64,000 nucleotides of DNA, from the NCBI GenBank assembly GCA_032718475.1, contig JAUCBJ010007578.1, forward strand, positions 1 to 64,000, given 5' to 3'. The position numbers were made by a program, and so were the translations under genes. Under the pieces are notes generated by a model. That model was not told the DNA's origin, did no database searches, and saw only the letters and a program-made list of their open reading frames with translations. Source of the stretch: Nemertoderma westbladi (lineage: Eukaryota > Animalia > Xenacoelomorpha). Below, piece after piece: positions 15,152 to 52,399 of the stretch; the first letter of the stretch is position 1, and each line of letters begins with the position of its first letter.

Positions 15152-15290
15152 GCCAAATGCCTCGCCATCTAATTAGTGGCGCGCATGAATGGATGAACGA
15201 GATTCCCACTGTCCCTATCTACTATCTAGCGAAACCGCAGCCAAGGGAACGGACTTGGCAGAATCAGCGGGGAAAGAAGACCCTGTTGAG
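15150..15290 (+). rRNA. 28S rRNA: 28S rRNA unit 1, segment 2 (141 bp between R2 and the giant insertion)
   Basis: TAGCCAAATGCCTCG...GGGGAAAGAAGACCCTGTTGAG; matches 52130-52270. Confidence 0.97.
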
Positions 15291-15296
15291 GTTGAC

Positions 15297-15360
15297 TCGG
15301 GATGACGGCATCCCCGAACGGGGATGCCGTCATCCCCGTTGGGGATGACAGTCATCCCGA
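15297..15360. repeat. Left subterminal cluster of GGGATGACGGCATCCC palindromes (insertion 1)
   Basis: CGGGATGACGGCATCCCCG, CGGGGATGCCGTCATCCCCG and GGGGATGACAGTCATCCCG in tandem. Confidence 0.9.
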
Positions 15361-15589
15361 AACTATTTATGTAATTATTTGCATAAAATTTGTGATATAG
15401 GGGTATTCCTGGGTGGAGATTTCATTTCTAATGCTGGTTTTCACTTTTGATATCGTCTGGACTGTCTGTTTGTCTGTCTGTCTGTCTTTCTATATTATTC
15501 TGTCTACCAGTTGTTTGTCATGAAATCATTTTATAATATATACAATTTTTAATAAGTGTTATTTGATTTGTGGTTAAGTTTAATACCTT

Positions 15590-18500
15590 AAATTTCTGTC
15601 AACTTGTGGTTTAATTGTTTGTAATAATGTAGGTCAGTATTAACCTTATGTGACATGAACACGATTTGAGATTGGGGATGACAGCATCCCTAAATCTAGA
15701 TTCACCCCAAATTTCTGTCAACTTGAGGTTGGCACTAGTGAAATATATTGTAATAAGTAGGTCTAACCTTAACCCCAACTACCTTATGCGACATGAACAC
15801 AATTTGAATCTAGAATTGGGGATGTCAGCATCCCTAAATCTAGATTCACCTCAAATTTTTGTCAACTTGAGGTTGGTACTAGTGAAATAGTTTATAATAA
15901 TGTAGGTCACTATTAACCTTAACCACAACTACCTTATGTGACATAATCAAGATTTGAGTCTAGAATTGGGGATGACTGCATCCCTAATTCTAGATTCACC
16001 TCAAATTTCTGTCAACTTGAAATTGGTACTAATGAAATAGTTTGTAATAATGTAGGTCAGTATTAACCTTAACCACAACTACATTATGTGACATGAACAC
16101 GATTTGAGTCTAGAATTGGGGATGACTGCATCCCTAATTCTAGATTCACCTCAAATTTCTGTCAACTTGAAATTGGTACTAATGAAATAGTTTGTAATAA
16201 TGTAGGTCAGTATTAACCTTAACCACAACTACCTTATGTGACATAATCAAGATTTGAGTCTAGAATTGGGGATGACTGCATCCCTAATTCTAGATTCACC
16301 TCAAATTTCTGTCAACTTGAAATTGGTACTAATGAAATAGTTTGTAATAATGTAGGTCAGTATTAACCTTAACCACAACTACCTTATGTGACATGAACAC
16401 GATTTGAGTCTAGAATTGGGGATGACTGCATCCCTAATTCTAGATTCACCTCAAATTTCTGTCAACTTGAAATTGGTACTAATGAAATAGTTTGTAATAA
16501 TGTAGGTCACTATTAACCTTAACCACAACTACCTTATGTGACATAATCAAGATTTGAGTCTAGAATTGGGGATGACTGCATCCCTAATTCTAGATTCACC
16601 TCAAATTTCTGTCAACTTGAAATTGGTACTAGTGAAATAGTTTGTAATAATGTAGGTCAGTATTAACCTTAACCACAACTACCTTATGTGACATGAACAC
16701 GATTTGAGTCTAGAATTGGGGATGACAGCATCCCTAAATCTAGATTCACCTCAAATTTATGTCAACTTTAGGTTGGTACTAGTGAAATAGTTTGTAATAA
16801 TGTAGGTCAGTATTAACCTTAACCACAACTACCTTATGTGACAAGAACACAATTTGAGTCTAGAATTGGGGATGTCAGCATCCCTAAATCTAGATTCACC
16901 TCAAATTTATGTCAACTTTAGGTTGGTACTAGTGAAATAGTTTGTAATAATGTAGGTCAGTATTAACCTTAACCACAACTACCTTATGTGACATGAACAC
17001 AATTTGAGTCTAGAATTGGGGATGTCAGCATCCCTAAATCTAGATTCACCTCAAATTTATGTCAACTTTAGGTTGGTACTAGTGAAATAGTTTGTAATAA
17101 TGTAGGTCAGTATTAACCTTAACCACAACTACCTTATGTGACATGAACACAATTTGAGTCTAGAATTGGGGATGTCAGCATCCCTAAATCTAGATTCACC
17201 TCAAATTTATGTCAACTTTAGGTTGGTACTAGTGAAATAGTTTGTAATAATGTAGGTCAGTATTAACCTTAACCACAACTACCTTATGTGACAAGAACAC
17301 GATATGAGTCTAGAATTGGGGGGGAACAGGGGATGATACCAATCTCAAGTTGACACGAAAATGAGTTGAACCTAAAGTTAGGGATGATGTCATCCCCAAT
17401 TATAGATTCATCTCAATTTCGTGTCAACTTGAGGTTGGTACTAGTGAAATAGTTTGTCATAATGTAGGTCAGTATTAACCTTAACCACAACTACCTTATG
17501 TGACATGAACACAGTTTGAGTCTAGAATTGGGGATGACAGCATCCCTAATTCTAGATTCACCTCAAATTTCTGTCAACTTGAGGTTGGCACTAGTGAAAT
17601 AGTTTGTAATAATGTAGGTCAGTATTAACCTTAACCACAACTACCTTATGTGACATGAACACGATTTGAGTCTAGAATTGGGGGGGGGGGGGGGGGGGCA
17701 GGGGATCATACCAACCTCAAGTTGACACAAAAATGAGTTGAACCTAAAGTTAGGGATGATGTCATCCCCAATTATAGATTCATCTCATTTTCGTGTCAAC
17801 TTGAGTTTGGTACTAGTGAAATAGTTTGTAATAATGTAGGTCAGTATTAACCTTAACCACAACTACCTTATGTGATATGAAAACAATTTGAGTCTAGAAT
17901 TGGGGATGACAGCATCCCTAATTCTAGATTCACCTCAAATTTCTGTCAACTTGAGTTTGGTACTAGTGAAATAGTTTGTAATAATGTAGGTCAGTATTAA
18001 CCTTAACCACAACTACCTTATGTGACATGAAAACAATTTGAGTCTAGAATTGGGGATGACAGCATCCCTAATTCTAGATTCACCTCAAATTTCTGTCAAC
18101 TTGAGGTTGGTACTAGTGAAATAGTTTGTTATAATGTAGGTCAGTATTAACCTTAACCCCAACTACCTTATGTGACATGAACAAGATTTCAGTCTAGAAT
18201 TGGGGGGGAACAGGGGATGATACCAACCTCAAGTTAACACGAAAATGAGTTGAACCTAAAGTTAGGGATGATGTCATCCCCAATTGTAGATTCATCTCAT
18301 TTTCGTGTCAACTTGAGGTTGGTACTAGTGAAATAGTTTGTAATAATGTAGGTCAGTATTAACCTTAACCACAACTACCTTATGTGACATGAACACGATT
18401 TGAGTCTAGAATTGGGGATGACAGCATCCCTAAATCTAGATTCACCTCAAATTTCTGTCAACTTGAGTTTGGTACTAGTGAAATAGTTTGTAATAATGTA

Positions 18501-52087: not shown

Positions 52088-52144
<57 letters not shown>

Positions 52145-52270
52145 CCATCTAATTAGTGGCGCGCATGAATGGATGAACGAGATTCCCACTGTCCCTATCT
52201 ACTATCTAGCGAAACCGCAGCCAAGGGAACGGACTTGGCAGAATCAGCGGGGAAAGAAGACCCTGTTGAG
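49498..52270 (+). rRNA. 28S rRNA: 28S rRNA unit 2, 5' part (R2 site empty; interrupted after ACCCTGTTGAG)
   Basis: Intact GACTCTCTTAAGGTAGCCAAATG at 52117-52139; rRNA stops at 52270. Confidence 0.97.
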
Positions 52271-52278
52271 GTTCTCTC

Positions 52279-52359
52279 TTGTTGATATCAACAATTACGA
52301 TTGTTGATATCAACAATTTAAAATGTTGTTATCAACATTTTCATTTCGTTGATATCAAC
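52279..52359. repeat. Left subterminal cluster of four TGTTGATATCAACA-type palindromes (insertion 2)
   Basis: TTGTTGATATCAACAA (52279), ATTGTTGATATCAACAAT (52300), AAATGTTGTTATCAACATTT (52321), GTTGATATCAAC (52348). Confidence 0.92.
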
Positions 52360-52399
52360 ACTTACAAATTGGAGCAAAATGGGTTTAACAGGGTGCTCA

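Follow-up and report, generated by a model that had tools for sequence, protein, structure and literature searches.

Recurrent insertions at one site of the 28S rRNA gene in Nemertoderma westbladi, likely non-autonomous members of a lineage of site-specific DNA transposons

The interrupted 28S rRNA genes

The window analysed here, a 64,000-bp stretch of DNA from Nemertoderma westbladi (GenBank assembly GCA_032718475.1, contig JAUCBJ010007578.1, positions 1 to 64,000), contains a ribosomal DNA (rDNA) array, with Rfam matches to two 18S, two 5.8S and five 28S sequences, and two large inserts, insert 1 and insert 2, that interrupt its 28S rRNA genes (Table 1). The two rDNA units show 100% identity over 5,973 bp and also over the 141 bp preceding the break. 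As the first-pass annotation had noted, both 28S genes are broken at the same nucleotide, directly after ACCCTGTTGAG (15290 in unit 1, 52270 in unit 2), and the inserts start in a similar way; the sequence reaching the break is GAAAGAAGACCCTGTTGAG in both genes and continues as GTTGACTC in insert 1 and as GTTCTCTC in insert 2. The distance from the site of the R2 retrotransposon, given as 141 bp downstream in that annotation, was the same when measured, and the position is one that we take to be around 2062–2072 in the numbering of E. coli 23S rRNA.

A search of the window located three copies of ACCCTGTTGAG, at 15280, 42114 and 52260, and a single copy of CTTGACTCTAG, the 28S word downstream of it, at 42125. 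Since copies of the target stand on both sides of insert 1 and the rest of the 28S gene follows the copy at 42114, insert 1 is complete; insert 2 extends past the window edge.

Table 1. Position of the rDNA genes, the two inserts and their parts in the window
Feature	Position	Strand	Remarks
18S rRNA gene, unit 1	4608..6412	+	Rfam RF01960
28S rRNA gene, unit 1, 5' part ending at R2 insertion	7369..9972	+	
R2, full-length, at the usual R2 site	9973..15149	+	Open reading frame 10537-14811, 1,424 aa; A79 tail
28S stretch of 141 bp, R2 site to new site	15150..15290	+	100% identical to 52130-52270
Left copy of putative 8-bp target core CTGTTGAG	15283..15290	+	
Insert 1, complete	15291..42116	+	26,826 bp given an 8-bp duplication; no gene found
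Insert 1 left end, GTTGACTC, then palindromes	15291..15360	+	
~150-bp satellite	15643..21931	+	Insert 1 palindrome in most units
Non-repetitive middle of insert 1	21932..22800	+	Short matches to host rDNA spacer repeats
Degenerate GGGAGCA array	22801..40836	+	18 kb, kb-scale internal duplications
397-bp repeat	40837..41607	+	2 copies, each with insert 1 palindrome
Insert 1 right end, GGTGTCTC	42109..42116	-	6/8 to each left end
Right copy of putative 8-bp target core CTGTTGAG	42117..42124	+	
28S octamer after target core, CTTGACTC	42125..42132	+	Resembled by element ends
28S rRNA gene, unit 1, 3' part	42125..43125	+	
28S rRNA gene, unit 2	49521..52270	+	R2 site intact, new site broken
Insert 2 left end, GTTCTCTC, then four palindromes	52271..52367	+	
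154-bp satellite of insert 2	52465..54371	+	Without palindrome
169/173-bp satellite of insert 2	54377..64000	+	Right end of insert 2 beyond window

Target duplication, ends and interior of the inserts

The target repeat flanking insert 1 is apparently 11 bp long (15280–15290 and 42114–42124). The register of the duplication was addressed by comparing repeat lengths of 4–11 bp for the match between the right end and the left ends, and with the length of 8 bp alone does the reversed right end match both left ends at 6/8 positions each, the other seven registers giving four matches at most. As at no other length the right end reads as an inverted, if imperfect, copy of the two left ends, 8 bp is the preferred reading of the duplication; one of 6 bp would fit just as well with the outer G/C pair assigned to the element and both ends shifted.

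No long terminal inverted repeat (TIR) was found in insert 1, the alignment of its left end with the reversed right end being equalled by 27 of 300 shuffles. Instead a short inverted motif of 8 bp, terminal in position, is common to the element ends and the target. Compared with CTTGACTC, the three ends present in the window agree at 7, 5 and 5 of 8 positions, in total 17/24, a likeness that none of 200,000 background draws reached, and when the best end was left out the remaining likeness was reached in 183 of 200,000 draws. The 28S octamer on the other side of the core, upstream, matches the end motif at 1/8 positions.

Inside its left end each insert carries its own palindrome, repeated at a spacing of 22 bp. 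In insert 1 this is GGGATG-N4-CATCCC, at +9 and +31 and in a weaker third copy, and all 43 matches to it fall within insert 1 (left end, 150-bp satellite and 397-bp repeat), the 397-bp repeat occurring in longer runs in reads than the two copies of the window. In insert 2 four palindromes of the type TGTTGATATCAACA are located at +10, +32, +54 and +77, with all 60 matches within insert 2 (left end and 169/173-bp satellite), and folding one 173-bp unit predicts a hairpin of ~115 bases centred on the palindrome.

Outside their first 8 bases the two inserts are, as judged from sequence, unrelated. The alignment of their left ends was equalled by 60 of 300 shuffles, the scores of four cross-insert satellite pairs were reached by 48–312 of 500 shuffles, leading to rejection of kinship between the satellites, and only three distinct 13-mers are common to both inserts. 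The claim of the first-pass annotation that the contents differ thus stands, and its claim that satellite cargo is delivered into rDNA is not supported in that form: three of the five arrays (150-bp, 397-bp and 169/173-bp) carry the left-end palindrome of their own element and therefore look like self-expansions, and the palindrome-bearing satellites are likely to be expansions of the elements' own repeats and not captured cargo. The 154-bp array and the GGGAGCA array of 18 kb are without palindrome, and this reading does not extend to them. The GGGAGCA array shows a strong strand skew and duplication offsets of 1,429, 2,848, 4,277 and 5,716; it was rejected as protein-coding sequence, with 95–256 stops in each of the six frames, and its Pro/Ser/Leu frames are stop-poor through composition. 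In the middle of insert 1, spacer-like matches containing the motif CGTATATAAGTTA were found at 22643–22750, the best covering 30/35 bases with an E value of 2.6e-5 within the window.

Neither a protein-coding open reading frame (ORF), a poly(A) tail nor a reverse transcriptase was found in the inserts. Intron families, group I included, are absent from the nine Rfam matches of the window and from seven further ones, and no tRNA genes were found. Insert 1 holds no RNA family at the curated score, and sub-threshold microRNA matches were dismissed as hairpin artefacts. With no enzyme encoded within the inserts, the enzyme must act in trans, as had been proposed from the first inspection of the sequence.

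Short-read junctions, relatives and the neighbouring R2 element

Short-read contigs of four out of seven runs (X1, X2, X3 and X5, without X4, X6 and X7) were compared with positions 41250–42290. In three of the four runs, covering two samples and two studies, the right junction of insert 1 lies inside single contigs, namely 41457–42143 in X1 (depth 285), 42026–42143 in X2 (depth 247) and 41580–42143 in X3 (depth 13.9), and the misassembly that the first-pass annotation had allowed for was therefore not seen at this junction. In X5 the 28S gene is deep and the element end uncovered, a contig gap that is not informative on absence. The right junction occurs many times over in the two samples; its depth corresponds to ~7% of the 28S depth in X1 and 1.4% in X3, values that are not copy numbers. 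A 31-letter record of X1, starting at 42114 with a different first letter and with a depth of ~4,000, was read as the empty site. All three junction contigs end at 42143, 30 bases past 42114, which would be the expected merger of a 31-mer graph with intact 28S.

No loose end leading from the right end of the element into other DNA was present among those listed, beyond which there are 76 further records, and the right end thus appears bound to 28S. In X2 two more loose ends enter 28S at 42116 and 42117; their last 8 bases match the end motif at 5/8 positions each (reached in 201 of 200,000 draws) and they are possibly right ends of other families. A loose end at 42167 occurs in three runs and one at 42207 in two runs, both from a single sample, the latter end with an X3 contig depth of 37 vs 13.9 at the insert 1 junction, and together with one at 42221 they possibly reflect another site of insertion or pieces of 28S located outside the array.

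The collections scanned for relatives are microbial or viral, animal genomes not being represented, and in them no relative of the inserts outside Nemertoderma westbladi was found. In metagenomes both matches to the left junction came from uninterrupted 28S carrying a C>G change, in prokaryote genomes 10 of the 16 matches were unbroken rRNA with a C>T change and the other six non-rRNA chance matches, and of two viral scans one gave no match and the other five, none of them an insertion relative. Three of the viral matches are non-rRNA (L019 and L021, without Rfam match, and L022, which shares the context of L019). The sequences L020 (1–271) and L023 (1–126) are RNA-virus-like contigs opening with a 28S piece that starts almost exactly at the target core, and these pieces are probably chimeric assembly, biased by the search pattern.

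In the literature searched no element is described at +141 of 28S, in agreement with the initial impression that the site is not a described animal transposon target; Repbase, subscription papers and supplements, which lie outside this search, may hold one. The site sequence itself occurs in six papers which, to judge by title, deal with primers and taxonomy, except for PMC10186657. As far as the accessible parts of the sources cited here and below go, no DNA element other than Pokey is known to be specific for rDNA (PMC3849761), Pokey is the sole DNA transposon listed for animal 28S in a review of 2024 (PMC10946416), and R4 and R1 insert 28 and 74/75 bp downstream of the R2 site (PMC3849761, PMC2048585).

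The full-length R2 of unit 1, indicative of an animal host, is separate from the insertions at the new site, and one 28S gene hosts both R2 and insert 1. Five target bases are lost at its 5' junction, its ORF contains an RVT_1 domain preceded by an N-terminal part of ~750 aa, and the best relatives are ~40% identical. Shifts of R2 junctions are described as upstream only (PMC5035012). In the spacers, 249-bp repeats (943–1811 and 43470–43840) each contain a slightly altered ~55-bp copy of 28S that ends at the R2 site (...CTTAAGG) and is followed by A27; these 28S-derived pieces may be decoy targets, or scars left by R2 activity. The (TTTAT)n tract (2420–2744 and 44449–44896) and the number of 249-bp repeats are unequal between the two spacers, the genes being identical.

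Origin of the insertions

The insertions in 28S described above are real and recurrent. They likely belong to several families, all non-autonomous, of one lineage of site-specific DNA transposons, and their site was not found described. That inserts 1 and 2 are non-autonomous members of two families of one such lineage, inserted by a sequence-specific DDE transposase encoded elsewhere, is considered probable, if only somewhat so, and the closest model for the lineage would by analogy be Dada or another KDZ-type element. Such an enzyme would bind the 8-bp end motif together with the palindromes, recognise the look-alike motif in 28S and cut with a stagger of 8 bp, or of 6 bp with the outer G/C pair counted as element sequence. 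The different palindromes may have co-evolved with their own enzymes, family by family, and the palindrome-bearing repeats may have grown into satellites, their copy number being altered by crossover in the rDNA.

Dada elements are described as lacking TIRs, as having short inverted motifs that recur in the target, equally far away, with several families per site, and as making duplications of 6–7 bp in tRNA, 5S and the small nuclear RNA (snRNA) genes U1 and U6, an apparent 8-bp repeat in Dada-U1 having been reinterpreted as 6 bp (PMC3706591, PMC8869645). They resemble the inserts in being DNA elements at a fixed site of a multicopy RNA gene with non-autonomous derivatives at the same site, and in that they have no long TIR and the short inverted end motifs recur on one side of the target, although this motif is subterminal in Dada and terminal in the inserts. 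Dada is also shorter, 4.7–11 kb compared with ~27 kb for insert 1, its target cores are unlike CTGTTGAG, and the satellite expansion of the inserts has no counterpart mentioned in the accessible parts of the Dada papers (PMC3706591, PMC8869645). Duplications of 8 bp are reported for Zisupton and Dileera, and of 7 bp for Kyakuja, which has short or absent TIRs and ends in CA..TG (PMC12730594). In the 8-bp register insert 1 thus shares its duplication length with Zisupton and Dileera. Zisupton elements carry palindromes and short subterminal repeats. The inserts lie in 28S, whereas no rDNA targeting is described for KDZ elements in the accessible part of the source (PMC12730594).

The known rDNA elements differ from the inserts in defining features. 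Pokey and mPok, of the piggyBac superfamily in Daphnia, are DNA transposons in 28S, as the inserts likely are, and Pokey holds rDNA-spacer sequence internally (PMC3849761), of which the matches at 22643–22750 of insert 1 are a weak echo. However, Pokey duplicates TTAA, has inverted terminal repeats, lies within a few bases of the R2 site and is ~5 kb long, compared with 8 bp, +141 and 27 kb for insert 1; identity with Pokey or another piggyBac element was ruled out by the core CTGTTGAG, which is not TTAA, and by the position 141 bp downstream of R2. The R elements (R2, R4, R1 and R5) occupy the same gene and the same survival niche (PMC3849761, PMC2048585, PMC5035012), but insert at ~0, +28 and +74/75 and encode reverse transcriptase, while the inserts have DNA-transposon-like ends at +141. 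Identity with R1, R2 or R4 was ruled out as there is no reverse transcriptase ORF and no 3' tail and the site is another one, and identity with a group I intron by the lack of an intron family match together with the target duplication.

Several observations weigh against the transposon reading. Dada targets tRNA, snRNA and 5S genes with duplications of 6–7 bp, and the inserts lie in 28S with 8 bp (or 6 bp). The left end of insert 1 also permits a reading as a repeat of 19 bp containing one mismatch, the register of the motif was picked after inspecting the data, so that the match statistics overstate certainty, and the coding search of the two inserts found no transposase. As to the reads, the junction contigs hold 30 letters from 42114 (19 past the repeat), one below the 31-letter bridge rule, X1 may be the source sample of the window itself, and read support concerns the right junction of insert 1. 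The loose ends at 42116 and 42117 come from one run with 30 letters each, the one at 42117 shares its final 8 letters with the 28S upstream and could derive from an rDNA fragment with a deletion, and the loose ends at 42167, 42207 and 42221 are junctions elsewhere in 28S.

The geometry of the inserts, moreover, also suits a tyrosine recombinase. On this explanation, a possible but clearly less probable one, a Crypton-like enzyme, or one of an animal counterpart of the Starships, which are giant fungal elements, integrates circles through a shared 8-bp core, the end motifs being its binding arms and the "duplication" the core brought by both partners. The layout fits, with ends and core forming a near-palindrome, and the large size of the inserts suits such a route; Cryptons, too, have short direct repeats (4–6 bp) and no TIRs (PMC3212892). 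However, the arms are ~8 bp long and imperfect, while tyrosine recombinase sites are described with inverted arms of 11–13 bp around a 6–8 bp spacer (PMC3212892), and the upstream 28S arm with its 1/8 matches leaves the target with a single arm, as in Dada. The 8-bp repeat also exceeds those of Cryptons (6 bp being the alternative here), and no recombinase gene was seen in the inserts. Less probable still, and in our view unlikely, is one ancient insertion spread by unequal crossover, its interior replaced through satellite turnover and with no continuing transposition. The junction depth relative to 28S cannot alone tell copying from new insertion, but nothing can be aligned past 8 bp between two inserts that have the same layout with different palindromes in rDNA whose flanks are 100% identical; inserted units are, in addition, usually purged from rDNA unless renewed (PMC3849761), and what may be further right ends at the new site were found in X2.

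The exact common site with its unrelated contents, and an intact R2 only 141 bp away, could also be accounted for by a break made by another nuclease, a homing endonuclease or a non-long-terminal-repeat retroelement, and filled with unrelated genomic satellite. This appears improbable, as neither poly(A), reverse transcriptase nor an intron family was found in the inserts, the R2 target differs in sequence, and mirror-image end motifs and palindrome arrays are unexpected for filler DNA. An assembly artefact, in which a short common word led to the fusion of rDNA reads with satellite reads, is very improbable: rDNA and satellites are difficult to assemble, the left junctions are known from the assembly alone and insert 2 could be the edge of an array, but the right junction is found also in contigs from a different study and a second sample, one of which has six other letters, and an assembler would not produce a target repeat with mirror-image end motifs.

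A broader proposal, offered tentatively and as doubtful, is that the inserts represent an unrecognised class of giant site-specific animal DNA elements, in which several families, each recognised through its own palindromic code, reach the peptidyl-transferase region of 28S as whole units of tens of kb. The enzyme moving them would belong to none of the known rDNA-targeting groups and might be a tyrosine recombinase. If true, this would provide an integrase of natural origin that places large DNA where the sequence is widely conserved in eukaryotes. Should copies of 27 kb be mobile as a whole, their enzyme could be considered for the placement of large DNA at a multicopy safe-harbour site. Mapped animal 28S sites, as described in the literature consulted, cluster within ~75 bp of the R2 site, and the new site at +141 lies beyond them. 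A second DNA-type rDNA lineage with several co-existing families would show that the rDNA niche is wider than thought and, with ends that resemble the target, would open the basis of target choice to testing; it would also offer a route for satellites to enter or arise within rDNA arrays.

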